DNA of 64,000 nt, from the NCBI GenBank assembly GCA_964424705.1, contig CAYRKB010000001.1:22575-86574 (forward strand), given 5' to 3'. This DNA comes from an uncultured Victivallales bacterium (GTDB lineage Bacteria; Verrucomicrobiota; Kiritimatiellia; UBA8416; CAYRKB01). This document shows, one piece after another, positions 32,062 through 53,019 of this stretch (positions are counted from its first letter, which is position 1; every line of letters begins with the position of its first letter). Position numbers and translations under genes: made by a program. Below the pieces are notes generated by a model. The model was not told the DNA's origin. It ran no database searches and worked only from the letters and a program-made list of their open reading frames with translations.

Positions 32062-32197
32062 CAAAGAGGGCATCGGCGGCTGTCTCTGGCGATTCCCCCC
32101 GCACGTAGGGTTGCGGATTCGCTCCGCCGTTCCTTCTTCTCTCTTGCATCATGAAATCCGTGCCAGGGGACATCCGGGCCAAGGTGATCGGGACGCC

Positions 32198-34153: not shown

Positions 34154-35359
34154 ATGCAATCAGACGCTGATATCCTGCTTCGCCATTTCGAGCGCTTGCG
34201 CCCCCTGGTCGTCAAGCCGGCCAACGGCTTCATCCGGTATCCGTACTGCATTCCGGGCGGATTCTACCAGCAGCAATGGGACTGGGATGGATTCTTCATT
34301 GCGACCCACCTGGCGGGGCGTACGCCCGCCCAGCCGGAGTACCTCAAGTACTGGGCGTTGAACTTCCTGGGGGCCGCCCTGCCAGGCGGCGAGATGTCCG
34401 CGTGCGTCAGCCCCGGGGGGCCAACGCCGGGACACGCATCGCTGCATATGAAGCCGTTTCTGGCGCAGGGCGCTGAGCTGGGCGCCCGGCTGCTTGGCGA
34501 CCGTTCCTGGCTGGCGGAGCATTACGAGTCCGTCGTGCGCATTGCCACGCGGCGGGAGACCACGCACTTTCACCCCGGGTGCGGGCTGTTTGCCTGGGAC
34601 GACGCGATGCAGTCGGGGGCGGACAACAACCCCGCGGTCGGCAACGATCCCGCCTCGGCGCGCCGGATCGCATCCTGCGACGTGAACGCCTTCCAGTGGC
34701 GCGAATACCTTGCCCTGGCGCGCATCGCGGCGGATCTCGGAAAGCCCGGGGACGCAGAGAAATTCAACCAGAAGGCCGCCGCGCTTGCGGCCGCGGTCAA
34801 CGCCCGCCTGTGGGACGCGGCGGCAGAGTCGTACTGGAATGTTGACACGCGATCGGGCGAGATGGTTCGCCGCGTCTCGTACTCCAATTTCGTGCCGCTG
34901 TGGGCCTGCATGGTTCCGGCCGACCGGGCGCGGGCCATGATCCGGCGCTATCTGTGGACCGAGGCGCACCTGCTGACGCCGTTCGGGCTGCGCTCGCTGT
35001 CGAAGGCGGATCCCGAGTACAACAACGAGAACATCATTATCCCGTACTCGAACTGGCAGGGCCCGGTCTGGCCGATTGCCAACTACTTCTACTTCGCGGC
35101 GCTGACGAGCTATGGCTTCGCGTCCGAGGCGCAGGAGCTGGTCCGGCGGCTTGTGGCGCTCTATTTGCGCGACATCGAATTCTGCGGCTCGCTGCATGAG
35201 AACTACGACGCCGAGACCGGCGCGCCGCTGGCGCCATCCGCTTCGCAGTCCAAGTCGGGCCTCGAGGGCGGCTTTATCGGGTGGAACCTGCTTCTTCAGG
35301 ACATGATGGAGATGGCCGACGGCCGGGCTTCTCTGCTTGCTCTTCAGCCGCAGGGGTGA
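34154..35359 (+). CDS. GH63-family hydrolase, short bacterial form (mannosylglycerate/glucosylglycerate hydrolase-like)
   Basis: It has 401 aa and a catalytic toroid only (...WQGPVWPIANYFYF..., HENYDAETG). It is a paralogue of the preceding gene. Confidence 0.7.
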   Translation: MQSDADILLRHFERLRPLVVKPANGFIRYPYCIPGGFYQQQWDWDGFFIATHLAGRTPAQPEYLKYWALNFLGAALPGGEMSACVSPGGPTPGHASLHMKPFLAQGAELGARLLGDRSWLAEHYESVVRIATRRETTHFHPGCGLFAWDDAMQSGADNNPAVGNDPASARRIASCDVNAFQWREYLALARIAADLGKPGDAEKFNQKAAALAAAVNARLWDAAAESYWNVDTRSGEMVRRVSYSNFVPLWACMVPADRARAMIRRYLWTEAHLLTPFGLRSLSKADPEYNNENIIIPYSNWQGPVWPIANYFYFAALTSYGFASEAQELVRRLVALYLRDIEFCGSLHENYDAETGAPLAPSASQSKSGLEGGFIGWNLLLQDMMEMADGRASLLALQPQG

Positions 35360-37531: not shown

Positions 37532-38281
37532 ATGAGCGAGGACGTTAAACATATTGTTCTGCGAGCCGTTGACGTGAAGCGCTACTATCACGGTGAGGAC
37601 GGCTCGGTCACGAAGGCGCTGGACGGCGTGACCCTCGACGTGGTCCGCGGCGAGTATCTTTCCATCATGGGCCCGTCGGGATCCGGGAAGTCCACCCTGT
37701 TCAACATGATCGGCGGAATCGACTGTCCGACCGAGGGCATGGTGTTTATCGACGAGATCGACATGGCCCAACTCGACGCCTACGAGCTGGCTTGGATGCG
37801 ATGCTACAAGATCGGCTATATATTCCAGAGCTACAACATTCTGCCCACCCTGAGCGCGCTGGAAAACACCACGCTGCCGATGCTTTTTGCGGGGCTCAGC
37901 CCGGGCGACGCCCGGGACAAGGCGGCGGAGATCCTGAAGATGGTGGGGCTGGGCGAGCGGCTGTTTCACCGGCCCTACGAGCTTTCCGGCGGCCAGCAGC
38001 AGCGCGTGGCCGTCGCGCGCGCGATCGCCAATGACCCGGTCATCATCCTTGCAGACGAGCCTACGGCCAACCTTGACACCAAGACCGGCGCGGAGATTAT
38101 CGACCTGCTCAACCGCCTGCGCAAGGAGCGCAACATCACGATCATTTCCGCGACGCATGACATGAAGATGCTCGACGTGTCCGACCGGATCCTGTGGATT
38201 CGCGACGGGCGGGTCGACCGGCTGGAGAAGCGGAAGGATTTGAATATCACGGTGGGCACCATCGGCGCGGCGGATCACTAG
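37532..38281 (+). CDS. ABC transporter ATP-binding protein (LolD/MacB-ATPase/FtsE-like), ATPase 1
   Basis: Walker A GPSGSGKST, the Q-loop, the signature LSGGQQQRVAVARA, Walker B ILADEPT and an H-loop are present. Confidence 0.9.
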   Translation: MSEDVKHIVLRAVDVKRYYHGEDGSVTKALDGVTLDVVRGEYLSIMGPSGSGKSTLFNMIGGIDCPTEGMVFIDEIDMAQLDAYELAWMRCYKIGYIFQSYNILPTLSALENTTLPMLFAGLSPGDARDKAAEILKMVGLGERLFHRPYELSGGQQQRVAVARAIANDPVIILADEPTANLDTKTGAEIIDLLNRLRKERNITIISATHDMKMLDVSDRILWIRDGRVDRLEKRKDLNITVGTIGAADH

Positions 38282-38299: not shown

Positions 38300-38974
38300 T
38301 TGCAGGAAAGGGCGGACGTGGAAGCAGGCAACATACCCGAACAGATACGGCTGAGCTGGGCGATCGCCTTCCAGGTGAGCCTGGCTGGCCTGCGCCGGCG
38401 CTTCGGGCGGTCGATGATCACGATGTCGGGCGTGGTCCTTGCCATTGCCTTCCTGGCCTACATGCTTTCTTCGGAGAGCATCATCAAATCCCTGATTCAG
38501 CTCGATGACGATCAGCTCAACATCCGGCTCCAGGAGATGGGTGTAAACATTTTCCGCGGCGGCGGCACGGATCCCATGACCTACCTGCTGCTGGGGCTGA
38601 CGCTTCTGACCTGCACCGTCGGCATCACGAATTCCATGCTCATGGCCGTCACGGAGCGAACCCGAGAGATCGGGACGCTGAAGTGCCTGGGCGCCAGCGA
38701 TGACTTCATTCTCAAGACCTACTTCATCGAGTCCTCGCTCCACGGGGTCTGCGGGGCCGTGTTGGGCATGGTCATCGGGCTGCTCGTTGCCATCGGGGTG
38801 AACTGGATCAACTATGGCCACCAGGCGCTGTTCGCGCTGCCCCTGGTCGGCCTGCTCAGAGCCCTGGTCATATCCCTTGTCATGGGCGGCCTGATGACGG
38901 TCACCGCATCGCTGTTCCCCGCCTATGTGGCGGCGCGGAAGCAGCCCGTGGAAGCCTTGAGGGTGGAGGAATAG
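38300..38974 (+). CDS. minimal FtsX-domain ABC permease (4 TM, no large periplasmic domain)
   Basis: TM1 is MITMSGVVLAIAFLAYML and only ~45 aa lie before TM2. The C-terminal FtsX 3-TM bundle ends ...FPAYVAARKQPVEALRVEE. The track start is TTG at 38300; GTG at 38318 with a GGAAAGGG RBS is likely. Confidence 0.75.
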   Translation: MQERADVEAGNIPEQIRLSWAIAFQVSLAGLRRRFGRSMITMSGVVLAIAFLAYMLSSESIIKSLIQLDDDQLNIRLQEMGVNIFRGGGTDPMTYLLLGLTLLTCTVGITNSMLMAVTERTREIGTLKCLGASDDFILKTYFIESSLHGVCGAVLGMVIGLLVAIGVNWINYGHQALFALPLVGLLRALVISLVMGGLMTVTASLFPAYVAARKQPVEALRVEE

Positions 38975-39711
38975 TGAGCGACGCCATCATTACCATTCGC
39001 GGGGTCTCGAAGGTGTACCGGAAGGGCGAGGAGGAGGTCCACGCGCTCCGCGGGGTGACCCTCGACATCCAGAAGGGCCAGTACGTGTCGATCATGGGGC
39101 CGTCCGGGTCGGGGAAGTCCACGCTCTTCAATATCATCGGCGGGCTCGACACCCCGACTTCGGGGGACGTGCTGGTGGAAGGCCACAAGCTCGACCAGCT
39201 GAACTCGTCGCAGCTCTCGTGGTTCCGCTGTCACAAGATTGGCTTCATCTTCCAGTCGTTCAACCTCGTCCCCACGATGACCGCGCTGGAGAACGTTGCC
39301 ATCGCGCGCACCTTTGCGGGCGCGTCGCCGTCCGAGGCCCGGCGCGATGCGGCCGCGGTGCTCGAGAGCGTCGGCCTGGGCCATCGGCTGGACCACCTTC
39401 CGTCGCAGGTGTCGGGCGGGCAGCAGCAGCGCATTGCCATCGCGCGGGCCCTGGTGAACAAGCCTCTCATCATTCTGGCGGACGAGCCGACCGGGAACCT
39501 GGATCTCAAGACGGGCGAGGAAATCATCAACCTGCTGTCCGCGATGAAGAAGGACCTGGGGATCACGATCGTGACGGCCACGCACGATATGAAGATGCTG
39601 TCCCGCTCTGATTTTGTCATCCGGATCGACAGCGGCGCGATTGAGAGCATCACGGCGAAGAAGGACCTGAAGATCGTTGTGGGGTCGATTGACGGCAAGA
39701 CGGTGCTCTGA
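38974..39711 (+). CDS. ABC transporter ATP-binding protein (LolD/MacB-ATPase-like), ATPase 2
   Basis: Walker A GPSGSGKST and the signature LSGGQQQRIAIARA are present. It is ~55% identical to ATPase 1. Its start overlaps the permease stop. Confidence 0.9.
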   Translation: MSDAIITIRGVSKVYRKGEEEVHALRGVTLDIQKGQYVSIMGPSGSGKSTLFNIIGGLDTPTSGDVLVEGHKLDQLNSSQLSWFRCHKIGFIFQSFNLVPTMTALENVAIARTFAGASPSEARRDAAAVLESVGLGHRLDHLPSQVSGGQQQRIAIARALVNKPLIILADEPTGNLDLKTGEEIINLLSAMKKDLGITIVTATHDMKMLSRSDFVIRIDSGAIESITAKKDLKIVVGSIDGKTVL

Positions 39712-39718
39712 GGCCGGG

Positions 39719-40066
39719 ATGAATAAAATTGATCGGAGAAGCTCCCTCGCGGGAGTTCCGGTGATGCTGGATGGCGTTGCGGCGGAGCATAAGCCGGATG
39801 GGGCGATGGCCCTGCGGGTGAGGATCGGGCGCGGCGCGGGTTTTCTTGAGCGGTTCCGGCCTGCGGTGACGGAGCGGACGTACGAGCTGGACCGGTTCGG
39901 CGGGTTCGTGGTGGACGAGATTGACGGCAAAAGGAATGTGCTGAGCATCATTGACGCGTTTCAGGAGAGATTCAGGATGTCGCGCCGTGAGTCGGAGCTT
40001 GGCGTGGTGGCGTTTCTGAAGATTCTCTTAAAGAGAAACCTGATCGCGATTGTGGCGAAAGATTGA
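39719..40066 (+). CDS. PqqD-like protein (RiPP-recognition-element / peptide-chaperone fold)
   Basis: The segment ...RTYELDRFGGFVVDEIDGKRNVLSIIDAFQERFRMSRRESELGVVAFLKILLKRNLI fits the PqqD family pattern (YxLD..G..vW..iDG.rtv.eI...l...f.....a..dv..Fl..L...gLI). The ATG at 39719 follows the ATPase 2 stop. The track ORF starts at 39677. Confidence 0.6.
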   Translation: MNKIDRRSSLAGVPVMLDGVAAEHKPDGAMALRVRIGRGAGFLERFRPAVTERTYELDRFGGFVVDEIDGKRNVLSIIDAFQERFRMSRRESELGVVAFLKILLKRNLIAIVAKD

Positions 40067-40096: not shown

Positions 40097-43000
40097 TTGT
40101 CCGTGACGATTATGAATGTGATGCGGTCTGAGGCCGGAAAGCGAGCGGGGCGGGGTCTGTCGAGGCCCGCGCTGAACATGGCCTGCGCTGTGGTGCTGGC
40201 TCTAACGGCGTTGGTTTCCCTCGGCCAGGAGGTCCCTGCGGCGCCTTCCGCGGAGGCCCGCGCCATGATTTCCGAGATGCGCGAGCTCTTCGGGTCGGCC
40301 GGGTCGATGGCGCCGGGGCAGCCGGGCAACATGGCTCTGGAGGCCGAGGTGGCCCGTCGCTTCGCAAAGAGCGGCTTCGCCACGGGATCGATTCCCTTCA
40401 GCGCGCCGGTCTTTGTGCCGGGCCGGACCGTTCTCACGCGGACCAACGAAGCCCCGGTGACTCTGTACACGATGCATCCCACGATGTACCGGCCGGGCAA
40501 TTTCGCCGAATCCGAGTTTGCGGCCGACCTGGTGTATCTAGGGAAGGGCGAGTATGAGGACCTGGCGCGGGTCAAGGGCTCGCAGCTGGAGGGCGCCATC
40601 GCGTTGATGGACTTCAACTGCGGCGCCCGGTGGCGGGACCTGCTGCGGTTCGGCGTGAGCGGCTTTGTCTTCATCGGCGCGCCGTCCTACGAGTATGCCG
40701 ATTCCTACTCGAAGGTGTACAACACCGAGGTCTCCGTGCCGCGCTTCTTCGCTGAGGCGGAGTCCGGCGGGAAGCTGAAGGCCGCCTGCCTTGCCGCCGA
40801 AAAGGACGCGTTCGCAATCCGGGTCGACGTCCAGTCCGAGCCGTCGCGATTCCAGCCGGGAGAGCTGAAGGACCTCTGGGTTCTTGTCCCCGGAAGCGAT
40901 CCTGAGCTGGGCAAGGAGATCGTGCTGTTCACGGCGCGGATGGACGCCAATAGCGTGGTGCCGGAGCTGGCGACCGGCGGCCAGGCCGCGATCAACCCGT
41001 ACCTCATGCTCAAGATGCTGGAAGATTTCACGGCGAAGCCGCCGAAGCGATCCGTGCTGCTCGTTGCGGTGAACGCGCACACGCAGGCGCACTTGGGCGA
41101 GCGCATCCTCGCGTGGCACCTGCTGGCGGATAGCAATGATGCCGCGAAGCTCCGCGGCGAGATGGCCCGCGAAATGAGGGTCGCGCGCCTGTACAGCGAG
41201 AACTACGGGCTGCTCAAGCTGGCCCCGGTGTCGCTCGACCAGGGCAGGCTTTTTGCCGCGGTCGAAATCCTTACCCAGCTTGACCTCAAGCGGCAGGCGC
41301 AGCGCAAGGCGCAGCGGGACGCGGCGAAAGACGGGGTGCCAGCGCTTGAAGCGACGCCAGCCGCCACGAACGCAAATGCCGAGATTTCCGAGGTCGATAC
41401 GAACGACGTGCTCGACCTCGCGGTCTTTGAGGAGCGGGACTATCGCGAAGCCATCGAGCGGGGCGTCAAGGCCGCGCGGGAGGAGGAGAAAGGCAGCTTT
41501 TTCTCGCGGCGCATGCGCGATGAGAAGATGGACCTGGCGCTCGCGCAGGAGCGGCAATGGCTCGAAAGCATGGAAGGCATGCCCTACGCCGAGATCCTGG
41601 AGATGGCGCAGCTGGCCAAGCCGGTGTTTGACGACGAAAAACTGTTCGAAAGCTGGCGGATTGACCTCGATTCATCGAGCGGGCAGCGCCTTTCCGTCAA
41701 GAAGGAAATTCAAACTGCGGCAATGAAGACCAAGAACGCGCTGCTGCAGGAGCGGATCCGCGCGACCCGGGACAAGCAGCTGAGCGAGGCCGAGCGAAGC
41801 GCGCGCCTGGCCGACGTGGAGCAGCGGAGGGTGGACGCAACCCGCGTGCTCGTGATGTTCAACAAGATCGACTTCGGCATCGGCCGGCGGAAAGTGCGCT
41901 ACAGGGACATTGCGGCGAACGAGGCGCAGCGCACGCTGCTCAAGCGGTACCGGGACGAGCTCACGGAGAAGTTCTCCTTCTGGCAGCGCCACCATCGGGG
42001 CCGGCTGGAGGCCGATGCCGCCGGGGATTCGGTCCGCGATCAGCTCGGGGGCGGGAAGGTTGTCCTCGCGCTGACCTTGGAGATGACAGCCAACAGCGGG
42101 AAGCTTGCTTTTTCCGCGAGCTGCCCGGGCTTCGAGCCGTCGTGGCAGAAGAACTTCGGCCAATTTGTCTCCGGGATTGTTGGCAATCTCTCCTCCAACC
42201 GTGCAGACCGGTGGACCCCCTACGTGGATTCGCTGAACCCCGTGCCGGGTCTGCAGCAGGTGGACCTGCTCTATTCAACGGACTCGGCCGTGCGGTACTT
42301 TGTCGCGGCGAAGAACGGAGTCCAGGGCTGCGGCACCCCGGCCCTGGCCCTCAAGAATGCGCTGGCCGGCAAGGGGCGGGTCTTCAGCCCGGGGGACACG
42401 CTGGAAGCGCTTGATGCGCAGCAGATCTTCGACCAGCAGGCGTGGCTGCGCGAGTTCCTGCCGGCGCTTCTGAACGATCCGAAGATGACCGCCCGCGAGA
42501 ACCTGGACGTTACGCTGGTGGGGCATGGCGCCACGTTCGACACGAGCCGGGGCCTGTGGTCCACGCTTCTCGGGACGTTCGCCATGGAGGAGATGACCGC
42601 GAACATTGTGCCGGAGAAGGCCCTGCCGGGCTGCATGGTCGTGCTTTACAGCAAAGCGGATCCTACGGCCGCGGCGAACTTCCTGTTGGATGGCGACGTC
42701 GTCAACTGCTATGCGGCGATGAGCGATATTACCGGGAAGGCTGTGGTCTACGGAATCGCCGAGGGCGGCGGCATGGCGCCGCTGGCCTACCAGATGGATA
42801 AGAACTGGCGCCAGGTGGTGGAAGCGCTGGACAAGGGCCGCATCCAGACCACCATGCAAATGGACAGCAACATCGCCCGCGACCCCGCCAAGACGCTGCC
42901 CATGTTCCCGTGCCGCGAGTTCCCGATCTTGGACAGGGTGGACCCGACGCTGGTGGGAACTGAACCGATTACCGTCGCGACCATCTGGCCGAAGATAGGA

Positions 43001-45625
43001 AGCAGCAAGTCGGATCCCGCGAAGTACGGGGTGCACGGCTTCTTCCTGCCGAACAGCGTCTGGTCGCACGCTGCGTCCGGCCCCGGCGCGGTCTACCTGA
43101 ACCGGAAAGACGGTGCGGCGGCTCAGGAATCCCTGATGGTCATCACGGAAAAGAAGCGCTGTTCGATCAATGCCACCCCTGAGAAGCCGGAGGGCACCGG
43201 CTACGCCACCGCCGGGGAGCTTGGGTCCGACCTTTTCGCGCACACGGCGGAGGACATGGATTCGCTGAACGGGTTCCGGAGAAATCGGCTCAAGGGCGTT
43301 GCCAACTCGCTTGTCGAGCGGTTCATCGGGGAGGGGAAGAAATCGCTCCAGGCCATGGATGTTGCGCGGCGAGCCAAGGACCACGGGGCGTTTCTGCAGG
43401 CGAACTACCGGGCGCTGGGAAGCGAGATCAAGGCGTACCTGCAACTCAGCGCCATGAATGCCGACATGCTGAAGGCCATCATCCTGTACATGGCCCTGAT
43501 GCTGCCTTTCTGCTTCTTCATCCAGAAGCTGCTTTTCGATTTCGACCTGCTGCAGCATGAGCTGCTCGCGTTCTCGGGATGCTTCGTCGCGATGTACAGC
43601 CTTTTCCGCGTGATCCACCCCGCCTTCACCGTTGCGGAAACGCCGGAGGCGATCTTCATTGCGTTCGTTCTAGGGGCGATCGGGCTCTTCGTCACCATGA
43701 TCATGCATTCCCGGTTCAAGTCGGACATGCAGATGATTTTCGGGAAGGTCGGCGGCATAGGTGACGACGCGGCCTATGGCACGGTCGGCACGACGGCCAT
43801 GATGGTGGGAATTCACAACATGCGGCGCAGGCGGGTGCGCACGGTGCTGACCACCTCGACCGTGATGCTCGTGATCTTCACGATGCTGACGTTCTCCAGC
43901 GTTTCGCAGCGGCTGGACCCCACGCTGATCAGGAAGGCGTCGGATGCGCCGTATACCGGGCTCTTCTTCCACTGGCCCGGCGGGAAGAATATGGACCAGG
44001 ATACGGTCAACGTCCTGCGAAACATCTTCTCGGACCGGGCGGATGTTGTTGTGAGGCGGACGATGGCGCTCACGGGCGCTTGGCCGATCGAGCCGGTGGG
44101 CGGCGGGCGGAGCGAGAGCGCCACGAATCTTATTCACGGCATCAAGAGCCTTGTCGGGCTGCCGTCGAACGATAGGGTGTTTGCCATGTCGCGACCCCTG
44201 GTTGCGGGCCGCCATTTCTCCGCCGATGATGCGAGCGAGATCATTCTGCCGGCGAAGGCCGCGGAGGCCATGAATTTGTCCGTGGCGGACGTGGGCCGGA
44301 CCACGCTGCGCTTTCATGGCGCGGACCTTGCGCTGGTGGGCATTGCGGACGACCAGCGCCTGCGCCTCGTCCGCGACATGAATCCCAATCTGCCGTTTCT
44401 GCCGTTTCTTGCGAATCAGGCGATGGGCGGTCCGAAGAAGGATCCCGAGTCGCTCGAGATCGCGGAGGATGACGTGAGCGCGATCGTGGCCGACACGGCC
44501 TCGCTGGTGCTGCTCCCCGCGACGGTGGCGAAGAACTGCGGCGCGCTCCCGCACAGCGTTTCCGTCCGCTTCCTTGATGAAGTGGTGGCGGGCCCCGGCT
44601 TTCACCTGTGGGAGGAGATGGACCGCCTGCTGACGATTACGCACGCCCGGTTCTACATCGGCAGCGAGAGCGCGTTCAAGGCCAACTCGGAGGCCGAGCG
44701 TGTCACGCAGGCGGGCATCTATTTCGTGAACAGTAACTACCGGACGTCCATCGGCGGGCTTGCGCGGCTTATCATTCCGCTGCTGATTGCCGGCCTGATC
44801 ATTCTCAACACGATGCTGGGCACGGTCTACGAGCGCAAGTCCGAGATCGCCATTTACAACGCCATCGGCCTGAACCCGACGCACATCTTCATGTTCTTTC
44901 TGGCGGAGGCGTTCGTGTACAGCTTCATCGGGTCCGTGGGCGGGTATCTCATCGGGCAGAGCCTGGCGATGACGCTGCAGCATTTTCACCTGATCCGGGA
45001 CATCGGCGTCAACTTCTCGTCGCTGATGGTGGTGTATGCCATCCTGTTCACCATTGGCCTGGTGCTTCTCTCCACGATCTACCCGGCCTACGTGGCGACG
45101 CGCACGGCGGTGCCCTCCGGAAAGCGGCGCTGGTCCATGCCGGCGCATGACGGCCACACGATGGACGTGGCGTTCCCCTTCATTTACGAGGGCAGCCTTT
45201 CTTCCGGCGTGATGTACTACATTTACGAGGACTTCCTCGCGTGCACGGAGAAGTCGCTCGGCAGCGTGATCGCCACGTTCGAGAGCAAGGCCGTTACCAC
45301 GGACGCCGAGGGAATGCCGGTGTACGCGCTGACGTATTCGATCGGGCTTGCGCCCTTTGACCTGGGCGTTACCCAGCGGGTGAAGTTCGTGGCGCGCTAT
45401 GAGAAGCGCGTGAGCAGTTACCGCCTGTCCGTCTCCATCGAGCACCTGTCCGGGCTGGACTCGAACTGGGTGAGCTTGAACCGCACGTTCCTGGAGCGCA
45501 TGCGGAAGTTTCTCATGGTGTGGCGCAATATGCCGCCGGCGATGTACGGGTGGTATTCGGATTGTGGAAAGAAGTTGTATCTGGACCAGCCGCTGCCGAC
45601 AAAGCCGGAGAGGGCTGTTCAGTAG
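40097..45625 (+). CDS. 1842-aa fusion: signal anchor + PA/M28-peptidase-like ectodomain + long charged/coiled linker + MacB/FtsX-type ABC permease
   Basis: The N-terminus ...MACAVVLALTALVSLG leads into M28/PA-like blocks (EGAIALMDFNCG...; LFTARMDANSVVPELATGGQAAIN; VAVNAHTQAHLGER). A MacB-like TM1 (RVRTVLTTSTVMLVIFTMLTFSSVSQRLDP) is followed by a ~300-aa periplasmic domain, then FtsX TM2-4 (...IAIYNAIGLNPTHIFMFFLAEAFVYSFIGS...). The start codon is uncertain: TTG 40097, GTG 40103 or ATG 40112. Confidence 0.75.
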   Translation: MSVTIMNVMRSEAGKRAGRGLSRPALNMACAVVLALTALVSLGQEVPAAPSAEARAMISEMRELFGSAGSMAPGQPGNMALEAEVARRFAKSGFATGSIPFSAPVFVPGRTVLTRTNEAPVTLYTMHPTMYRPGNFAESEFAADLVYLGKGEYEDLARVKGSQLEGAIALMDFNCGARWRDLLRFGVSGFVFIGAPSYEYADSYSKVYNTEVSVPRFFAEAESGGKLKAACLAAEKDAFAIRVDVQSEPSRFQPGELKDLWVLVPGSDPELGKEIVLFTARMDANSVVPELATGGQAAINPYLMLKMLEDFTAKPPKRSVLLVAVNAHTQAHLGERILAWHLLADSNDAAKLRGEMAREMRVARLYSENYGLLKLAPVSLDQGRLFAAVEILTQLDLKRQAQRKAQRDAAKDGVPALEATPAATNANAEISEVDTNDVLDLAVFEERDYREAIERGVKAAREEEKGSFFSRRMRDEKMDLALAQERQWLESMEGMPYAEILEMAQLAKPVFDDEKLFESWRIDLDSSSGQRLSVKKEIQTAAMKTKNALLQERIRATRDKQLSEAERSARLADVEQRRVDATRVLVMFNKIDFGIGRRKVRYRDIAANEAQRTLLKRYRDELTEKFSFWQRHHRGRLEADAAGDSVRDQLGGGKVVLALTLEMTANSGKLAFSASCPGFEPSWQKNFGQFVSGIVGNLSSNRADRWTPYVDSLNPVPGLQQVDLLYSTDSAVRYFVAAKNGVQGCGTPALALKNALAGKGRVFSPGDTLEALDAQQIFDQQAWLREFLPALLNDPKMTARENLDVTLVGHGATFDTSRGLWSTLLGTFAMEEMTANIVPEKALPGCMVVLYSKADPTAAANFLLDGDVVNCYAAMSDITGKAVVYGIAEGGGMAPLAYQMDKNWRQVVEALDKGRIQTTMQMDSNIARDPAKTLPMFPCREFPILDRVDPTLVGTEPITVATIWPKIGSSKSDPAKYGVHGFFLPNSVWSHAASGPGAVYLNRKDGAAAQESLMVITEKKRCSINATPEKPEGTGYATAGELGSDLFAHTAEDMDSLNGFRRNRLKGVANSLVERFIGEGKKSLQAMDVARRAKDHGAFLQANYRALGSEIKAYLQLSAMNADMLKAIILYMALMLPFCFFIQKLLFDFDLLQHELLAFSGCFVAMYSLFRVIHPAFTVAETPEAIFIAFVLGAIGLFVTMIMHSRFKSDMQMIFGKVGGIGDDAAYGTVGTTAMMVGIHNMRRRRVRTVLTTSTVMLVIFTMLTFSSVSQRLDPTLIRKASDAPYTGLFFHWPGGKNMDQDTVNVLRNIFSDRADVVVRRTMALTGAWPIEPVGGGRSESATNLIHGIKSLVGLPSNDRVFAMSRPLVAGRHFSADDASEIILPAKAAEAMNLSVADVGRTTLRFHGADLALVGIADDQRLRLVRDMNPNLPFLPFLANQAMGGPKKDPESLEIAEDDVSAIVADTASLVLLPATVAKNCGALPHSVSVRFLDEVVAGPGFHLWEEMDRLLTITHARFYIGSESAFKANSEAERVTQAGIYFVNSNYRTSIGGLARLIIPLLIAGLIILNTMLGTVYERKSEIAIYNAIGLNPTHIFMFFLAEAFVYSFIGSVGGYLIGQSLAMTLQHFHLIRDIGVNFSSLMVVYAILFTIGLVLLSTIYPAYVATRTAVPSGKRRWSMPAHDGHTMDVAFPFIYEGSLSSGVMYYIYEDFLACTEKSLGSVIATFESKAVTTDAEGMPVYALTYSIGLAPFDLGVTQRVKFVARYEKRVSSYRLSVSIEHLSGLDSNWVSLNRTFLERMRKFLMVWRNMPPAMYGWYSDCGKKLYLDQPLPTKPERAVQ

Positions 45626-45764: not shown

Positions 45765-47774
45765 GTGTCGTTCACTGACGACAAAGAACTGAACGAATAT
45801 CGGCAGATCATGGCGCCGCCCGAAGTGTCAGGCTTCGAGGATGGCTTCAACTGGAAAGCCATCGCCGGCGCTATTTTCCTGGGCTTCATCGTGATGCCCG
45901 CGTCGGACTATCTCAGCCTTGTCATCGGCGGCGACGCCGGGCTTGGCAACACCATGAAGTGGATTCTGGTGATCCTCTTCGCCGAAATCGCGCGCCGCTC
46001 GTTCACCAGTCTGAAATGTCAGGAGCTGTACGTTCTGCAGTTCATGGTCGGCTATGCGATGGCCGACCAGTTCACCGGATACCTGTGGACCCAGTACGTG
46101 GCGCAGTCGGACTATATCAAGGGGCTGGGGCTCGACCTCCCCAAATGGGCGTTTCCCGCCGCCGAGGAATTGGAGCGGAGCGGCCGCACGTTCCTGGCTA
46201 AGCCGTGGCTGCCCATCATTGCCCTTACCATGTTCGGGGTCTTCATCAGCCGCATCCACAACTACGGCCTCGGCTACGTGCTTTACAGGGTTGTCAACGA
46301 CGTTGAGAAATTACCCTTCCCGTTCGCGCCCGTTGCGGCGGCAGGCATTGTGGCCCTGTCCACCGACCGCGGCGACGAGGCGAAGTGGCGCCGGCGCTGT
46401 TTCAGCATCGGCGGCATCGTTGGGATTACGTGGGGCATGATCTACATTTGCGTGCCCGTGATCACGGAGGCCATTCTTCCCAAGCGCGTCGAGCTCGTCC
46501 CCCTGATCTTTCTCGATTTCACGACGCAGTTCGGCAAGCTGCTGCCGGCCGTCCCTTTCAACCTCGTGCTGGACGTTGGCGCGTTTCTGGCCGGTATGAT
46601 CGTGCCGTGGTGGGGGGTGATCGGAGGAGCGGTCGCGCTGCTCATGACCTGGATTCTGAACCCGTTCCTCCAGCATATCGGCGTCCTCTCCCAGTGGCGG
46701 CCGGACATGGGCTACATCAATACGACGTTCGTCAACAGCATTGATTTCTATCTGTCGTTCGGAATCGGGGTGTCCCTGGCCATTACGTTCAGCCAGATGT
46801 TCATCACGGTCGGGGAGCGGATCAGGGAAAAGATGAAGCCCGGCGCGCAGCGCGTGATCACCCACAGAAAGACCATGGGGCAGGGGTTTCGTGAGAATTG
46901 GAAGATCCTGTTCACTAACAACCGTGCCCGCGGCGATTTCTCGATTTGGGTCGCCATCGGCATTTACCTCTTTGAGACGTTCGCATGGATCGGGCTAGGC
47001 CTGTACCTGATCGGGCCGCGCTATCCGTGGATGCTGCTGACCTTCTTTGCGCTGGTCTACACGCCGCTCTTCTCGTATGCGACGGCCAAGATGGAAGGGC
47101 TGATCGGCCGCGGGCTGAACCTGCCGATGCTCAGGGAAGTGACGATTCTCGCCACGGGGTACCAGGGCTCGGCCATCTGGTTCGCGCCCATGCCGATCGC
47201 GAACGTGGGGAGCGAGACGTCCGGCTTCCGGGTGCTCGAATTGACGGGCACGAAGATCCAGAGCCAGATCAAAACCATCGTGCTCACTCTGCCTATTGTC
47301 GTCATTGCGTCATTCTTCACGGCGGAGATTCTCTGGCGCATGGCGCCTGTGCCGTCGGCCGCGTACCCATGGACCGAGCGCATGTGGGAGATGAATATCC
47401 GGAACTGGGGCGTAATCTACACCTCGACGCTGGAGGGCGGATCCCAGTTCCTGGAGGCCCTGAACGGCAATTACGTGGTCTGGGGCCTCGTGGCCGGGTC
47501 TACGCTGCTTGGCTCGTTGACCATGCTGGGGCTGCCGGTCATGTTTATTTTCGGCGCGCTGGGCGGCCTGTCGCAGGTGTCCCCCGGCGCGATGTTCTGC
47601 GGCCTGGTCGGCGCCATTGTGGGACGGTTCTATTTCAGGAAACGTTACAAGGACATGTGGCTGAAGTATATGACGGTCGTGCTGGCAGGCTTCGGTTGCG
47701 GGATGGGCATTATCGCCATGGTCGGGATGGCCTTTACTGTGATCACGCGAATGTTAAGCCCCACGTTGTGGTGA
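45765..47774 (+). CDS. large polytopic integral membrane protein (>=14 predicted TM helices), family unknown
   Basis: GTG at 45765 is preceded by AAGAGGAGG. Hydrophobic helices run throughout (AIFLGFIVMP..., ILVILFAEIA..., WLPIIALTMFGVFI..., etc.). It has no ABC or MFS signatures. Confidence 0.7.
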   Translation: MSFTDDKELNEYRQIMAPPEVSGFEDGFNWKAIAGAIFLGFIVMPASDYLSLVIGGDAGLGNTMKWILVILFAEIARRSFTSLKCQELYVLQFMVGYAMADQFTGYLWTQYVAQSDYIKGLGLDLPKWAFPAAEELERSGRTFLAKPWLPIIALTMFGVFISRIHNYGLGYVLYRVVNDVEKLPFPFAPVAAAGIVALSTDRGDEAKWRRRCFSIGGIVGITWGMIYICVPVITEAILPKRVELVPLIFLDFTTQFGKLLPAVPFNLVLDVGAFLAGMIVPWWGVIGGAVALLMTWILNPFLQHIGVLSQWRPDMGYINTTFVNSIDFYLSFGIGVSLAITFSQMFITVGERIREKMKPGAQRVITHRKTMGQGFRENWKILFTNNRARGDFSIWVAIGIYLFETFAWIGLGLYLIGPRYPWMLLTFFALVYTPLFSYATAKMEGLIGRGLNLPMLREVTILATGYQGSAIWFAPMPIANVGSETSGFRVLELTGTKIQSQIKTIVLTLPIVVIASFFTAEILWRMAPVPSAAYPWTERMWEMNIRNWGVIYTSTLEGGSQFLEALNGNYVVWGLVAGSTLLGSLTMLGLPVMFIFGALGGLSQVSPGAMFCGLVGAIVGRFYFRKRYKDMWLKYMTVVLAGFGCGMGIIAMVGMAFTVITRMLSPTLW

Positions 47775-47795
47775 CAAGGGGAGTACGGGAATTTC

Positions 47796-50735
47796 ATGAG
47801 CGAAAAGACTGAAGGTTTAGGAAGAATGACGGGGCGGGCGTTTGTCCTCGGCCTCTTCTTTGCGGCGGTTTTTGCCTGGTTTACGGTCCTGCGCGAAAAC
47901 CGTCCTCCCTATGAGGCTTTGACGGCGACCAACATTCCCGTCCTCCCGTATGCCCTGCTCGTGGTCTCCGTGCTCGTTATCAACCCGCTGGTCAAGTTTC
48001 TGCGGCTGGCGCGGGTTTTTTCGCGCGTTGAGCTGCTCGTGATCTTCTTGATGGGAATGGTGTCGAACGGCATCGTTTCCTACGGTCTGCAGGCGCAGCT
48101 CGTGCCGCTTGTAGCGGGCCCGTCGAGCCGCTTCAACCACCCCGGGGTCAGGTGGAACGTGTATGTCGAGCCGTACCTCAATGAGGATTTCTATCTCGTC
48201 TCGAAGGGTTCCAGCAAGGCCGCCGCCAGCTACAGGGACGCGGACGCGGCCGCGGAGAAGGCAAAGTCCGTGCTCAAAGCGGCGCAGGACCTGACGGTGT
48301 GCAGGGAGGACCAGCAACGGGCCCAGGAGGCGCTGGACGGGCTTGTCGCGCCGCAGGGCCAGCCGCAGGTGCCTGAGACCGTGCGGCAGGGCTACGAACG
48401 CAAGCTGCGCATTGCCCAGCGCCAGTACCAGCAGGCTGAGAAGGCTTGGCAGGTGTATGCCGCCGCGAACGTGGAGCGTGAGGTCATTGCCACATTTGGC
48501 GAGAAGATCAAGCTGCTGGATGTCGAAAAGGCGGCGCGGAAGGAAGCCCTGGCGGCCATCAAGAAGCCGGCGACCGATTTCGTCAGCGAGTTTGAGAAGG
48601 GATTTGCGCCGGAGAAGCGGGCGATCCCCGGGTTTATCTATATCACGGGCGAAGGCTGGGAGAGCTACTCGTCCCGCTTCGAGCGCATGGTAAAGGGCCG
48701 GAAGGCCTTCGCCGAGCTGTATGAGGCAGATTGCCTGCTGGCCAGAGCCCGGCAGGGCGAAGGCCTCGACGTGGCAGCCGTGGACGCGGCTCTGGGAAGA
48801 GCGATTGTCCTGCTGGAACACATCGGCGACATGTCGCAGCTTGCTGAGCGGAAAGCTGCGTTCTCGGCCAAGCAGGCGGAGCTCGATGCCATCCGCGCGA
48901 AGGAGCAGTCAGGGCTGAAGGACCTCCAGGAGCGCGGCTACTATGCTAAGGACCGCGACATCGCATCGATCGAGAAGCAGACCAAAGCTACGACGAAGCG
49001 GATCGAGCTGCTGGACAAGCAGATTCTCAAGCTGACGGAGGCCGTGAAGGCGAAGATCGACCCGGAGGCGACAGTGCGCGGGCGCGCCGTCGCCGTGCTG
49101 GAGACCGCGCGCTCGATCCGCGCTGAATTCGGCACGGCGAAGGATATCCCGGCGCTGCGCGGCCGGCTGGCGGCAAGCCTTGCGACGTTCCGCTCGTTCG
49201 ACGCGTCCCTGCGCCGGTTCCTTGTGGGGGATATCCAGTGGAGCGTCTGGGCGAAGCCTCTCTTCAACTGGAGCCTGATCGTCTTTGCGACGTACATCGT
49301 CCTGATGTCGCTTAACGTCCTTATCTTCAGGCAGTGGGCCCATAATGAGAAGCTCATCTACCCGCTGGCAGAGCTTCCGCTGATCATGGCTGGCGCGGAT
49401 GACGTGGAACAGAAGGGCGTGCTGCCCCTGGTGTTCAAGAGCGGACTTTTCTGGACCGGGTTCTGCATATCCGCGGTCATCCTCGGGTGGAACCATCTGG
49501 CGGACGCCAGGATCATTGCCAACATCAGCCCGATCTCGCTCGACTACAAGTGGGGATCCTATGTGGACGGCAGCGTATTCAACGCGCTCAAGGAGACCCG
49601 CTTCAAGATTATCTTCTCCGTGATCGGCCTGACATTCCTCGTTCCGGCGGGAGTTTCTTACTCCATGTGGTTTTGGCAGGTGCTATGCATGGTGGAACTG
49701 CTCGTCATGGTCTGGCTTGGCATGGGGCAGAGCCGCGACTCATTCCAGTACCACTTCACGTATCTCATGAACTACCAGACGGCGCAGGGCGGCGGCGCCC
49801 TCATCGTCTTCGCCTCGGTCATTCTCTGGAAGTGCCGGAAGTACCTCTTGTCCGCCTTCTCGGCGCAGTCCGTTGCGGGCCTGGATCCGTCCGAGCGCAG
49901 CGAGCTGCGGGTGTCGTCCGCGCTATTCCTTGCGGGGTCCGTTGCGCTCGTGGCCATGTTCACGCTACGGCTCAACGTGAACATCTTTTACTCTGTCATC
50001 ATGTACCTGCTTTTGCTCGTCCTGACGATCGGCCTGGTGCGCGCGGTCGCAGAAGGCGGCGTCCTTGGCACCCAGGCGTTCTTCAACCCCTTCCACTTTA
50101 TCCGGCATGTGTTCGGCATGGACAAGGCCTGGAACTCGCCCGTGCTGATGGCGCCGCTGTGGATCTTTGTGGCGATGATGTACGTCGACATCAAGTCCTT
50201 CATCGCGCCCGCGATGGCCAACGCGATGAAGCTCCGCGACGACATGCGCATCAACCGCCTCAAGTTCCACGGTGCCGTGTGGGCCAGCATTCTGGCCGCG
50301 ATGGCCGTCGGGTTTGCGGTGCACCTGATCCTCGCCTACTCGGGCGGCACCGGCAAGATGAGCGGGTGGCATTACTCGGGCGGCGTGCAGGACCAGATGG
50401 GCTTTGGCTTCATCCAGCGCATGATGGAAGAGAAGCCCGTGGACGTGGCGGGGGTGCGGTGGTGGATGCTCGCCGGCGCGTCGATCATGGTGATGGTGAT
50501 CCTGCTGCGCCAGCAGTTCAACTGGATTACGCATCCGATCGGCCTGATCATGTGCATCAACCCGATGATGTTCCTGTTCTGGGGATCCATGTTTATCGGA
50601 TGGTGTTTCAAGTCGCTCGTGAGCAAATACGGGAATCGGGAAACCTACCAGCGCCTCCGCTATCTGGCCGTCGGCCTGATCGTTGGCGAGCTTTTTGTTG
50701 CGGTCCTCGGGTGGCACCGGTTTGACTTCTGGTGA
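47796..50735 (+). CDS. 979-aa integral membrane protein: N-terminal TM cluster, ~300-aa cytoplasmic/periplasmic coiled-coil insert, C-terminal multi-TM domain; family unknown
   Basis: TMs lie at residues ~15-110. Residues ~150-470 are charged and helical (AAEKAKSVLKAAQDL...QERGYYAKDRDIASIEKQTKATTKRIELLDKQILKLTEAVKAK). About 11 further TMs follow to the C-terminus. Confidence 0.7.
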   Translation: MSEKTEGLGRMTGRAFVLGLFFAAVFAWFTVLRENRPPYEALTATNIPVLPYALLVVSVLVINPLVKFLRLARVFSRVELLVIFLMGMVSNGIVSYGLQAQLVPLVAGPSSRFNHPGVRWNVYVEPYLNEDFYLVSKGSSKAAASYRDADAAAEKAKSVLKAAQDLTVCREDQQRAQEALDGLVAPQGQPQVPETVRQGYERKLRIAQRQYQQAEKAWQVYAAANVEREVIATFGEKIKLLDVEKAARKEALAAIKKPATDFVSEFEKGFAPEKRAIPGFIYITGEGWESYSSRFERMVKGRKAFAELYEADCLLARARQGEGLDVAAVDAALGRAIVLLEHIGDMSQLAERKAAFSAKQAELDAIRAKEQSGLKDLQERGYYAKDRDIASIEKQTKATTKRIELLDKQILKLTEAVKAKIDPEATVRGRAVAVLETARSIRAEFGTAKDIPALRGRLAASLATFRSFDASLRRFLVGDIQWSVWAKPLFNWSLIVFATYIVLMSLNVLIFRQWAHNEKLIYPLAELPLIMAGADDVEQKGVLPLVFKSGLFWTGFCISAVILGWNHLADARIIANISPISLDYKWGSYVDGSVFNALKETRFKIIFSVIGLTFLVPAGVSYSMWFWQVLCMVELLVMVWLGMGQSRDSFQYHFTYLMNYQTAQGGGALIVFASVILWKCRKYLLSAFSAQSVAGLDPSERSELRVSSALFLAGSVALVAMFTLRLNVNIFYSVIMYLLLLVLTIGLVRAVAEGGVLGTQAFFNPFHFIRHVFGMDKAWNSPVLMAPLWIFVAMMYVDIKSFIAPAMANAMKLRDDMRINRLKFHGAVWASILAAMAVGFAVHLILAYSGGTGKMSGWHYSGGVQDQMGFGFIQRMMEEKPVDVAGVRWWMLAGASIMVMVILLRQQFNWITHPIGLIMCINPMMFLFWGSMFIGWCFKSLVSKYGNRETYQRLRYLAVGLIVGELFVAVLGWHRFDFW

Positions 50736-50742
50736 TGCTCCC

Positions 50743-51681
50743 GTGAAGAAACCCGACCGCCAGCCGCGCGAGTTCGCCTGGGACGGCGTCGAGTTCCAGA
50801 TCCCCTGGAACTGGGAGCTCGGGCTCTATGAGTTCATGCGCAAGGGGGTTTCCCGTATCGAGGTGGAAGACGAATACGTCGTCCGGCTCGAAGCGGAATG
50901 GATCCGGCCGACGAAGCGGGCGCTGAGGCCGGCTGCCATCCTTGAAAAATACAAGGATGCAGCGGGCGCCCTCACGCGCATGGCGCATGAAACGATCGAA
51001 ATTCATGGCCTGCCGCCCGGCTGGGCGGCCACGCGTGCCCTGCAGAGGACCACGGGCAGCTCCCGGAAGAAGCGCGGGCTGGCGGTGTCGGAGCGCGAGA
51101 GCATTTGCGCGATCTACGTGTGCCCCCAGTCGAAGCTCCTCCTCTTCGTCCTGCTGCACTTTTCATCCGAAGACAAGGAAAACCCGGAAGAGGTGATGCG
51201 CATGATCGCGGGCAGCTTCCGGGATCACGCTGAGGCCCCGCTCATCCCCTGGAAGCTGTTCGATATCGCGTTTGAATTGCCGCGCGAATTCAAGCTCGCC
51301 CGCGCGTCGTTCGATGTCGGCGCCAAGCATATGGTGTTTCGCTGGAAGACGCGCCGGCTCCATCTGTGGCATTTCGCGTGCGCCGACATGTTCCTCAAGG
51401 GCGGGGAAGGCATGGAGGAGTGGGTCACCGGCTACCTGAACGCCTATTCGCAGATTCGCGGAATTGTCTTCATGCCCGGAAAGAACGGGGAAATCCTCTG
51501 GCGGCGGCGCGCGCGGCATCTCTTTGGGCACCGCAACGAGATTGCCAGCTGGTGTTTCCAGTACAAGGCCGGGTGCCGCCTGGACGCTGGAAGAAACCAG
51601 CTCCTGGCCTGGGTCTATCACTACCGCGAGGCGGGCGACCTGCACGTAATCCCCGCGTCCTGCCTGCCGCTCGGGAGTTGA
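50743..51681 (+). CDS. soluble hypothetical protein (312 aa), last gene of the plus-strand operon
   Basis: A GTG start lies 7 nt after the preceding stop. The protein is Trp/aromatic-rich with two similar halves (...FAWDGVEFQIPWNWELGLYEF... / ...PLIPWKLFDIAFELPREFKL...). The track ORF 50683..51681 extends upstream in-frame across the previous stop region. Confidence 0.55.
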   Translation: MKKPDRQPREFAWDGVEFQIPWNWELGLYEFMRKGVSRIEVEDEYVVRLEAEWIRPTKRALRPAAILEKYKDAAGALTRMAHETIEIHGLPPGWAATRALQRTTGSSRKKRGLAVSERESICAIYVCPQSKLLLFVLLHFSSEDKENPEEVMRMIAGSFRDHAEAPLIPWKLFDIAFELPREFKLARASFDVGAKHMVFRWKTRRLHLWHFACADMFLKGGEGMEEWVTGYLNAYSQIRGIVFMPGKNGEILWRRRARHLFGHRNEIASWCFQYKAGCRLDAGRNQLLAWVYHYREAGDLHVIPASCLPLGS

Positions 51682-51729: not shown

Positions 51730-52824
51730 CTATTTCACGTCCGCCATGTCGTAGCGCGTCGTGCCCAGCCCGAGTTTCTCCAGCCACTGGACCTGCACGT
51801 AGGGATCCTTGCCGTGCAGCTTTTCAAAGAGGTGTTTTCCGTCGCGCAGCATGTACGGCGGCGTGATGGAGCCCGGAATCACCTCCTCGGACTTGATCAT
51901 GTCGAGGCACGCCTGCTCGACGGCCACGATGTCCTGGCCCGCAGCGATGCCGATGTCGGGGACGAGCGCCGGGGTGGTGAAGCCCCAGCAGTCGCAGTAG
52001 ATCGTGATGTGCATGAGCGTATTGATGAAGAAGACGTCTTCCGGCTTGAACGTGTCCAGCACCAGCTTGGCGACCCGCGCCAGGCCTTCCTGGAAGAGGT
52101 TGAACTGCGGCGCTTGGATGCGGATTGCCTTGGTAGGGCAGGCGAGCATGCAGTGCATGCACCGCCGGCAGTGGTGCCAGAAGATGTTGTAGTCGCCCTG
52201 TTCGTTGAACGTGTTGGCCTGGGTCGAGCACTCCTCGAGGCACTTGTTGCAGTGCGTGCACTTGCTCTTATCCCATACCAGCTCCCCTTCAAGCCCGTGC
52301 ATGGCCCCTCGGGTCTCGCCGGGCGTGCAGCCCATGGCGAGGTTCTTGCACGCACCCCCGAACCCGCACGCGCCATGCCCTTTGATATGCGAGAAATCGA
52401 TCAACACGTCCGCTTCCACAATGGGCCGTCCAAGCCAGGCCACGGGCAGGCTGGGCCACCCGGTTTCCAGGCGCACGAGGTCCTTGCCGTCCGCGCCCAG
52501 GGCCGGCACGAGCTCAGCGCCGATGGTCTCCTTCGCGTAGCCGCGGTCGGAGGCCCCCGTGATGCTGCCGTCCGTCACGAATACGCGCTTGGGGTTGCCG
52601 GTCTTGATGTGGTCCACGAGGAGCTTCACGAAGAGCGGATGAATGGTCGAGTAGCCGATGCCGCCGCCCAGGTGCATTTTGATGGCCACGGTCTTCCCGG
52701 CGACGCGCTCCTGGATGGGAAGCAGCGCGAGCAGGCGGCTGAACTTGGCGGGCAGCGTGCGGTCGCGGTCGAGCTTCTCCGGACGGGCCGATGCGAACAG
52801 AACTTTGGACGCGGTCGTAGCCAT
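51730..52824 (-). CDS. DUF362-domain protein with 4Fe-4S ferredoxin-type cluster motifs
   Basis: The motifs CTHCNKCLEEC and CRRCMHCMLACP are present. DUF362 family blocks include GKTVAIKMHLGG and DFSHIKGHGACGFGGACKN. The ATG at 52824 has a GGAGAGG RBS. Confidence 0.75.
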   Translation of the reverse strand: MATTASKVLFASARPEKLDRDRTLPAKFSRLLALLPIQERVAGKTVAIKMHLGGGIGYSTIHPLFVKLLVDHIKTGNPKRVFVTDGSITGASDRGYAKETIGAELVPALGADGKDLVRLETGWPSLPVAWLGRPIVEADVLIDFSHIKGHGACGFGGACKNLAMGCTPGETRGAMHGLEGELVWDKSKCTHCNKCLEECSTQANTFNEQGDYNIFWHHCRRCMHCMLACPTKAIRIQAPQFNLFQEGLARVAKLVLDTFKPEDVFFINTLMHITIYCDCWGFTTPALVPDIGIAAGQDIVAVEQACLDMIKSEEVIPGSITPPYMLRDGKHLFEKLHGKDPYVQVQWLEKLGLGTTRYDMADVK

Positions 52825-53019
52825 GATTCCTCTCCCCGGGTTGTCGCTCTTAATGCGTCCCATATTGACCATATCGGCCGCATGGTTGGCAAGCCTGCAG
52901 ATTGCGTTAGCCGGGGTCCGCGCGGGTCCTCCATGGGACCGCGGGAGCACACGCGTGCCCTGTCCCGCCCAATGCCCAAGGGCGCGCAGGCCGGATGTCT
53001 GAAGCGACCCCTAAGCATT

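Follow-up and report, generated by a model that had tools for sequence, protein, structure and literature searches.

ATP-binding cassette (ABC) systems of the MacB/LolCDE type perform ATP-driven mechanical work in the periplasm, and their own membrane domain does not serve as a route for the substrate. The FtsX-type systems known so far carry out export or extraction, and known OPT proteins are importers; we know of no OPT protein that is tied to an ABC module. The OPT family is known for proton-coupled peptide uptake, and the barley protein HvYS1, of the OPT/YSL family (PF03169), is a homodimeric OPT transporter with an elevator-type mechanism (PMC9691689). Here we analyze a 64,000-nucleotide stretch of contig CAYRKB010000001.1 from an uncultured Victivallales bacterium (assembly GCA_964424705.1), referred to throughout as the window. 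It matches a 296,846-bp contig of JGI metagenome 3300044987, and the genomes most closely related to it are assemblies of Victivallales and Kiritimatiellia. It contains an eight-gene operon that encodes an ABC module with FtsX-type permeases, and the 3′ end of this operon is formed by three genes whose products we call P1, P2, and P3 (Table 1). An earlier reading of the sequence alone (the original prediction) had described these three as uncharacterized proteins that close the operon. From its profile matches, P1 is assigned to the OPT superfamily as a divergent permease, and P2 is a member of the DUF6785/DUF6784 family that is probably a distant homolog of P1. On balance we lean, without strong conviction, toward a reading in which an OPT-like heterodimer of P1 and P2 is coupled to an ABC mechanotransducer of the MacB/LolCDE type, whose cargo is peptide-like.

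P1 and P2 as a putative OPT-like pair

The match of the window P1 to the Pfam OPT model is weak (13.8 bits, E 0.022) and spans profile positions 119 to 621 of 623. Within the P1 family, 10 of 23 members match the same model at E ≤ 0.1, the best of them at 3.2e-8, and many relatives of P1 have a precomputed PF03169 match and are labeled "peptide transporter" or "OPT/YSL family transporter" by their sources. Hydropathy analysis gave about 13 to 15 hydrophobic segments, a range that straddles the minimum of 14 transmembrane segments in the original prediction. The length and the segment count are both in keeping with OPT proteins, which have about 600 to 750 amino acids and about 14 to 16 membrane segments. 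P1 therefore resembles the OPT/YSL family in its similar length, its many membrane segments, and its colinear, near-full-length profile match; it differs in that it falls under the Pfam threshold and in that the P1 profile does not retrieve HvYS1. To our knowledge, none of the bacterial OPT-like proteins of the P1 group has been functionally tested.

Between homologs from the Planctomycetota-Verrucomicrobiota-Chlamydiota (PVC) bacteria and from Desulfobacterota, the identity of P1 is 43 to 44%, compared with 24 to 26% for the P2 core and about 25% for the giant FtsX-domain protein of the operon. By this sequence comparison, P1 is the best-conserved membrane component of the system. Invariant charged residues are found within hydrophobic stretches of P1 and likewise of P2. 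Together with the conservation of P1, these residues would be consistent with permeases that are active and not decayed. Residues 1–31 of P1, its N-terminal tail on the cytoplasmic side, are conserved like the rest of the protein in 83 sequences from two phylum groups, and the pattern D-x-E-L-x-x-Y-R...P...F-x-x-G-F-x-W is kept by at least 90% of them. This tail is a candidate linear ligand of the PqqD-like protein of the operon or of P3.

The original prediction had found no motif in the three proteins that could be assigned to a family, and had likened P2 to mechanosensitive or cytoskeleton-coupled membrane proteins. Neither statement survived the profile searches. In addition to the OPT-like character of P1, P2 matches two Pfam models far over threshold: DUF6785 (PF20581) with 252.5 bits (cut-off 25; E 8.9e-75) and DUF6784 (PF20580) with 62.2 bits (cut-off 26.4; E 5.6e-17), in the usual order of DUF6785 followed by DUF6784. 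Searches of Pfam, NCBIfam, and PDB sequences, and a Foldseek search run with a poor model, gave no match of the MscS, MscL, or MscK type and none to a cytoskeleton-coupled protein. Proteins of the DUF6785/DUF6784 family are typically 640 to 730 amino acids long; P2 differs from them by a helical insert of ~340 amino acids between profile positions 137 and 138, which splits the DUF6785 match in two. Three hydrophobic segments precede residue 100 and about 10 to 11 follow residue 485. The long insert of the original prediction is confirmed as helical, and its proposed coiled-coil character is only weakly backed, as described below. A profile of the P2 C-terminal core retrieved 4598 clusters (50% identity, E ≤ 1e-3), and the best 150 of these are mostly 640 to 730 amino acids long, with about 30 long forms of 915 to 1075 amino acids. 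In the literature library that was searched, no paper on DUF6785 or DUF6784 was found.

Without its insert, the P2 core has about 660 residues and is nearly equal in length to P1. An alignment of DUF6785 built from 85 diverse short forms was compared with the P1 family by hhalign. The resulting colinear match starts at the N-terminus and spans 233 columns, with a Prob of 90.6% and an E of 1.3e-6. Repetition with a larger P1 alignment gave nearly the same result (Prob 90.5%, E 1.4e-6, 253 columns), and a global alignment covered 584 of about 660 columns (E 1.3e-4). A motif, E-K/R-L-x-F/Y-P, is common to the P1 and P2 families and occupies an equal position in both. These alignments point to DUF6785 as a probable distant homolog of P1, and hence a distant relative of the OPT proteins. 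The similarity of P1 to P2 was not significant by BLASTP, and searches of PDB sequences with single sequences and with profiles yielded only chance matches to cereblon and to coiled coils.

Gene neighborhood of P1 across genomes

With one genome per species, at least 543 species-level genomes were found to contain a P1 relative. The best 80 P1 loci were searched with profiles of all eight operon proteins, and gene neighbors were counted in the 40 loci with full flanks, i.e., those in which the sequence extends for 8 kb or more on the upstream side of P1 and for 6.5 kb or more on the downstream side. The giant FtsX gene and the P2 gene were each found beside P1 in all 40 of these loci, an ABC ATPase was present in 38, and the small FtsX in 36. 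The tight linkage to the ABC core that the original prediction had emphasized is thereby confirmed, as is the co-occurrence with the 1842-amino acid protein. The system is carried by PVC bacteria, Desulfobacterota, and one Acidobacteriota genome, in at least three gene orders and with some divergent or convergent orientations. PVC loci have either the order of the window or the order ABC-PqqD-giant-P1-P2-FtsX-ABC(-P3). The order in Desulfobacterota and the single Acidobacteriota genome is FtsX-ABC-giant-P2-P1, then P3-PqqD, and in some loci the ABC genes or P3 are on the opposite strand. The adjacency of P1, P2, and the giant FtsX protein is strict across two distant lineage groups and across these rearrangements.

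Such adjacency bears on whether P1 and P2 could be ordinary, independent nutrient peptide importers whose operon is merely shared with an unrelated ABC system. Proton-coupled peptide uptake is what the OPT family is described to do (PMC9691689), relatives of P1 are labeled as peptide transporters by their sources, and in one locus (L004) a solitary DUF6785 gene stands without ABC neighbors, which indicates that the DUF6785 family is broader than the ABC-linked system. However, unrelated genes would not be expected to stay adjacent, despite reordering and strand inversion, in all 40 of these loci, which come from PVC bacteria, Desulfobacterota, and one Acidobacteriota genome, and this makes independent importers an improbable explanation.

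Two further layouts were observed. A 6.9-kb contig assigned to "uncultured Planctomycetota" (L010) encodes the PqqD-like protein, directly followed by P1 and then P3, and contains no giant FtsX gene and no P2; this layout reflects either a reduction of the locus or an error of assembly. In many Desulfobacterota loci (e.g., L050 at ~15646, L059 at ~15332, and L081 at ~15278, minus strand), an ABC-ATPase open reading frame of about 850 to 970 amino acids lies convergent downstream of P3-PqqD, and in those loci a single LolD-like ATPase is found beside the FtsX genes.

The three open reading frames at the end of the window operon exist exactly as first listed, and they do close the operon, since the next gene is convergent on the minus strand. 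Database relatives exist for each, which establishes P1, P2, and P3 as real genes rather than chance open reading frames: P1 has more than 1000 relatives of equal length with 45 to 81% identity, P2 has seven close relatives of 969 to 989 amino acids, and P3 has 20 relatives. The start codon of P1 is a GTG six bases 3′ of AGGAGG. For P2, the start is perhaps at 47826 (969 amino acids), where gene callers place it. The longest P3 open reading frame is 50683-51681 (plus strand, 332 amino acids), but the start is probably the GTG at 50743, 8 nucleotides past the P2 stop, because the database copy of P3 has 312 amino acids. Gene-caller lengths for the giant FtsX protein, an open reading frame of 1842 amino acids, are 1815 to 1837 amino acids. 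The genes on both flanks of the operon, encoding a GYF_2-domain protein and a DUF362 protein, face the opposite way, and neither is kept beside the system in other loci. Two adjacent glycoside hydrolase genes lie further upstream. Promoter- and terminator-like sites in the operon showed no excess over shuffled sequence, the operon screen for Rfam families returned none, and the anti-phage defense models of PADLOC gave no match.

Table 1. Features of the eight-gene operon and its surroundings, in window coordinates
Feature	Position	Strand	Evidence or remark
MGH1-like/GH63-type glycoside hydrolase genes, adjacent, upstream of operon	31973-34039 and 34154-35359	+	Pfam PF22422, E 5e-47 and 7e-40
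GYF_2-domain protein, 633 amino acids	35452-37353	-	upstream flank, divergent to operon
ABC ATPase 1 (LolD/MacB/FtsE class), first gene of operon	37532-38281	+	Pfam ABC_tran E 7.6e-32; NCBIfam LolD 6.3e-63, under equivalog cut-off; conserved in related loci
Small FtsX-type permease, 224 amino acids	38300-38974	+	Pfam FtsX E 8e-18; four hydrophobic segments; no large periplasmic domain
ABC ATPase 2 (LolD-like)	38974-39711	+	Pfam ABC_tran E 2.4e-36; NCBIfam LolD 8.4e-71, under cut-off
PqqD-like protein, 115 amino acids, between ABC ATPase 2 and giant FtsX	39719-40066	+	Pfam PF05402, 32 bits (cut-off 23.4)
Giant FtsX-domain protein, 1842-amino acid open reading frame	40097-45625	+	Pfam FtsX at residues 1560-1670, E 6.6e-14
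Variable central periplasmic region of giant protein, residues ~365-850	41190-42650	+	BLAST alignments to homologs
P1, divergent OPT-superfamily permease (assigned by profile), 669 amino acids	45765-47774	+	weak near-full-length Pfam OPT match, family matches
P1 N-terminal tail, residues 1-31	45765-45860	+	conserved in 83 sequences
P2, DUF6785+DUF6784 membrane protein, 979 amino acids (alternative start 47826)	47796-50735	+	Pfam
P2 all-helical insert, ~340 amino acids, residues ~138-475	48207-49220	+	27 PVC loci have it; P0128 and 41 short-form loci lack it
Conserved loop within P2 insert, residues ~272-301	48609-48698	+	low-confidence loop in model
P3, soluble, 312 amino acids, two Mog1/PsbP-like halves (modeled), no signal peptide	50743-51681	+	structure model, fold searches
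DUF362 protein with 4Fe-4S motifs	51730-52950	-	downstream flank, convergent

The ABC module, the P2 insert, and P3

The operon ATPases are closest to LolD, MacB, FtsE, and DevA in NCBIfam, and the DarB and DarD models are among the weaker matches. With its FtsX-domain permeases and LolD/MacB/FtsE-like ATPases, the operon resembles the type VII ABC systems MacB, LolCDE, and FtsEX, and as with LolC and LolE, its two FtsX proteins are unlike each other. It differs from the type VII systems in the size of one FtsX protein (1600 to 1950 amino acids), in having no membrane-fusion or TolC-like partner, and in its obligatory OPT-like pair, its PqqD-like protein, and P3, which have no counterpart in those systems. 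A MacAB-TolC-type pump was not recognizable, as neither the window operon nor the related loci were found to contain a HlyD/membrane-fusion or TolC-like gene. In L001, L003, and L008, the PqqD-like protein is encoded by a gene of its own. In L002 and L013, its domain is joined to the giant FtsX protein at the N-terminus of the latter, and this fusion argues for a physical association of the two on the cytoplasmic side. In the giant protein, the central periplasmic region at residues ~365–850 gives no BLAST alignment to Desulfobacterota homologs and only partial alignment to other PVC homologs, and its flanks align at 25 to 48% identity; this variable region parallels the lineage-specific insert of P2. 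An inactive M28/PA-like domain was considered for the N-terminal periplasmic region of the giant protein and was dropped when a PDB sequence search gave no support.

According to the Pfam and NCBIfam names, the PqqD-like fold is a peptide-recognition element in pathways for ribosomally synthesized and post-translationally modified peptides (RiPPs). The operon might accordingly be read as a dedicated exporter of a ribosomal peptide or another envelope component, in which the PqqD-like protein would bind the peptide in the cytoplasm, P1 and P2 would translocate it, the ABC module would expel or install it, and P3 would act as an immunity-like protein or a chaperone. Such an exporter would agree with the FtsX-type ABC exporters of peptide natural-product clusters, among them DarB and DarD, and with the immunity proteins among the fold neighbors of P3. 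It is hard to reconcile with the remainder of the gene set, in which a precursor peptide, a maturase, a membrane-fusion protein, and an outer-membrane channel are not conserved. Maturase genes, whether of the radical SAM, YcaO, lasso, or another kind, and a conserved small open reading frame, as would be found in a RiPP cluster, are missing from the window operon and related loci. The spacing of the giant gene and P1 is likewise not conserved (140 nucleotides in the window and 5 in L001), P3 has no export signal, and the OPT proteins known to date import. We therefore consider a dedicated exporter quite unlikely.

The P2 insert consists of ~340 residues that are extra to the short family members. 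It is formed in the structure model by eight helices of 18 to 59 residues each, with a predicted local distance difference test score (pLDDT) of 70 to 88. Heptad periodicity exceeded that of shuffled sequences in only two of the eight helices (z 2.4 and 2.1), which would favor a helical bundle over one long coiled coil. A search of the insert profile against the PDB produced helical-bundle and coiled-coil matches, none significant, and the top Foldseek matches, weak and nonsignificant, were the elongated helical bundles of ClyA-type toxins. Among the loci, the 27 long forms of P2 are all from PVC bacteria and the 41 short forms are all in the other group; in the genomes surveyed, the insert is confined to PVC lineages, within the operon type of the window. 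Counts of lysine plus arginine over 85 short-form sequences are 2.3 for the N-terminus, 0.6 for loop one, and 3.4 for loop two (RRLRRRR). The insertion site lies in an aromatic/proline-rich loop after loop two, and the motif RRQWxERER is found past the next segment. Because the counts alternate cleanly across the loops, the insert is placed outside the cytoplasm and is predicted to face the periplasm.

Inside the otherwise variable insert, residues ~272–301 are strongly conserved with the pattern EKRAIPGF..(x)..GEG..SY..R..R...G, and the conserved residues are R275, A276, P278, G279, Y291, R294, R297, and G301. This segment, a low-confidence loop in the model, is probably a contact site. In Desulfobacterota, 23 loci (L058, 12110-12751, and 22 others) encode a protein of ~210 amino acids with a signal-peptide-like N-terminus just upstream of P3. 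Its gene is present in 0 of 27 long-form P2 loci versus 20 of 41 short-form loci, and the protein may take the place of the insert that P2 has in PVC bacteria.

The insert is also relevant to another explanation, close to the "stator" half of the conduit-or-stator proposal in the original prediction, in which P1 and P2 would be a non-transporting scaffold that anchors and positions the giant FtsX/ABC complex, with the P2 insert as a periplasmic strut. In favor of such a scaffold are the strict co-occurrence of P1 and P2 with the giant protein, the presence of a large, predicted periplasmic helical insert in some lineages only, the weak top fold matches of this insert to elongated helical bundles, and the distance of P1 from canonical OPT proteins, which keeps it under the Pfam threshold. 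However, no other membrane protein of the set is as well conserved as P1, the hydrophobic segments of both P1 and P2 contain invariant charged residues as in working permeases, and the Desulfobacterota do without the insert. We regard a pure scaffold as unlikely.

P3 had been described as a tryptophan-rich soluble protein, and its composition agrees with this: it contains 3.8% tryptophan and has neither a hydrophobic N-terminus nor an export signal. No match to P3 was found in Pfam or NCBIfam, and P3 has no similarity to the C-terminal domain of the giant protein. The AlphaFold2 model (pLDDT 86.9, predicted template modeling score (pTM) 0.82) consists of two similar sheet-plus-helix halves. 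Foldseek matched it to PsbP (E 1.1e-5), BT_1490, Tsi3, and Mog1, and two fold searches both gave the Mog1/PsbP-like fold, an alpha-beta sandwich. P3 is accordingly a cytoplasmic protein with, in the model, two Mog1/PsbP-like halves. By sequence its family is an orphan, and by fold it is of a known type. This type is known for partner binding and not for catalysis, and the close fold neighbors of P3 include the type VI secretion immunity proteins TplEi and Tsi3. P3 differs from the Mog1/PsbP-like proteins (Mog1, PsbP, DcrB, LpqN, BT_1490, TplEi, and Tsi3) in having no detectable sequence kinship with them (4 to 13% identity), and from the bacterial members, which are mostly exported or lipoproteins, in the absence of an export signal.

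A proposed OPT-like pair coupled to an ABC mechanotransducer

The arrangement that we favor, an OPT-like heterodimer of P1 and P2 coupled to the ABC module, would work as follows. HvYS1 is a dimer, which is consistent with two adjoining paralogs, and since P1 and P2 always adjoin, a heterodimer would be the simplest pairing by analogy; HvYS1 differs in being a homodimer, as opposed to the two unlike paralogs that are tied to an ABC module here. The P1/P2 pair would form the inner-membrane path for peptide-like cargo. An OPT-like pair could supply such a path, because MacB/LolCDE-type systems carry no substrate through their own membrane domain. The ABC module would convert ATP hydrolysis into mechanical work on the cargo or the envelope through large periplasmic domains, and the insert that P2 has in PVC bacteria would extend as far as these domains in the giant protein. 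On the cytoplasmic side, P3 and the PqqD-like protein may dock cargo or partners. The direction of transport may be import or export, between which the sequence does not decide.

Several results weigh against this arrangement. The window P1 scores under the Pfam OPT threshold (13.8 versus 25.8 bits), and the P1 family profile, searched against PDB sequences, retrieved no solved structure even at E ≤ 10. The similarity between P1 and P2 is significant only over the N-terminal ~40%, and with shallower or close alignments it was not significant by hhalign (E 0.2 and 0.011). Ten DUF6785 proteins scanned with Pfam gave no direct OPT match. Because significance is limited to the N-terminal part and a direct DUF6785-OPT match is missing, the link between P1 and P2 is probable, not proven. 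The AlphaFold2 model of P2, made with an eight-sequence alignment, is too poor for a fold test (pLDDT 57, pTM 0.29, membrane part below 50), and Foldseek found nothing for this poor model in the PDB at E ≤ 0.001. The coupling of P1 and P2 to the ABC module is deduced wholly from gene neighborhood, in which the PqqD-like gene is nearby in only 24 and P3 in only 22 of the 40 full-flank loci, and the operon contains no cargo gene, maturase, or outer-membrane or membrane-fusion partner.

A more elaborate form of the same arrangement is a hybrid envelope machine of a class not described before, which we put forward tentatively and consider rather doubtful as a whole. A giant-subunit ABC mechanotransducer would work obligatorily with the OPT heterodimer, the PqqD-like domain would hold the parts together in the cytoplasm by gripping a linear peptide, for which the P1 N-terminal tail is a candidate, and P3 would contribute as an adaptor. 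ATP-driven and gradient-driven steps would thus be combined in one peptide-trafficking pathway, which would be widespread in anaerobic PVC bacteria and Desulfobacterota.

P1 is a new divergent member of a known superfamily, as judged from its profile matches, and P2 belongs to a family that has a name but no studies, and its insert is lineage-specific. The two are combined, as an OPT-like pair, with a type VII ABC module that includes a giant FtsX protein, with a PqqD-like protein, and with a Mog1/PsbP-like protein. Literature searches, including one for OPT, FtsX, and PqqD together, found no paper that describes the combined system. DUF6785 is probably to be placed among the distant relatives of OPT proteins and gains constant partners, and a conserved eight-gene system is defined in at least 543 species-level genomes. 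Cultured strains are among the carriers, namely Oligosphaera ethanolica DSM 24202, Desulfopila sp. IMCC35008, Desulfatibacillum alkenivorans DSM 16219, and Desulfacinum hydrothermale DSM 13146. The wide distribution of the system, its consistent assembly, and its accessibility to tests in these strains give it a moderate interest. If its parts do work together, P1 and P2 would be the first pair of OPT-type permeases linked to an ABC mechanotransducer of type VII, and this would bear on how ABC systems of this type, whose own membrane domains offer the substrate no path, take up or hand over their cargo.

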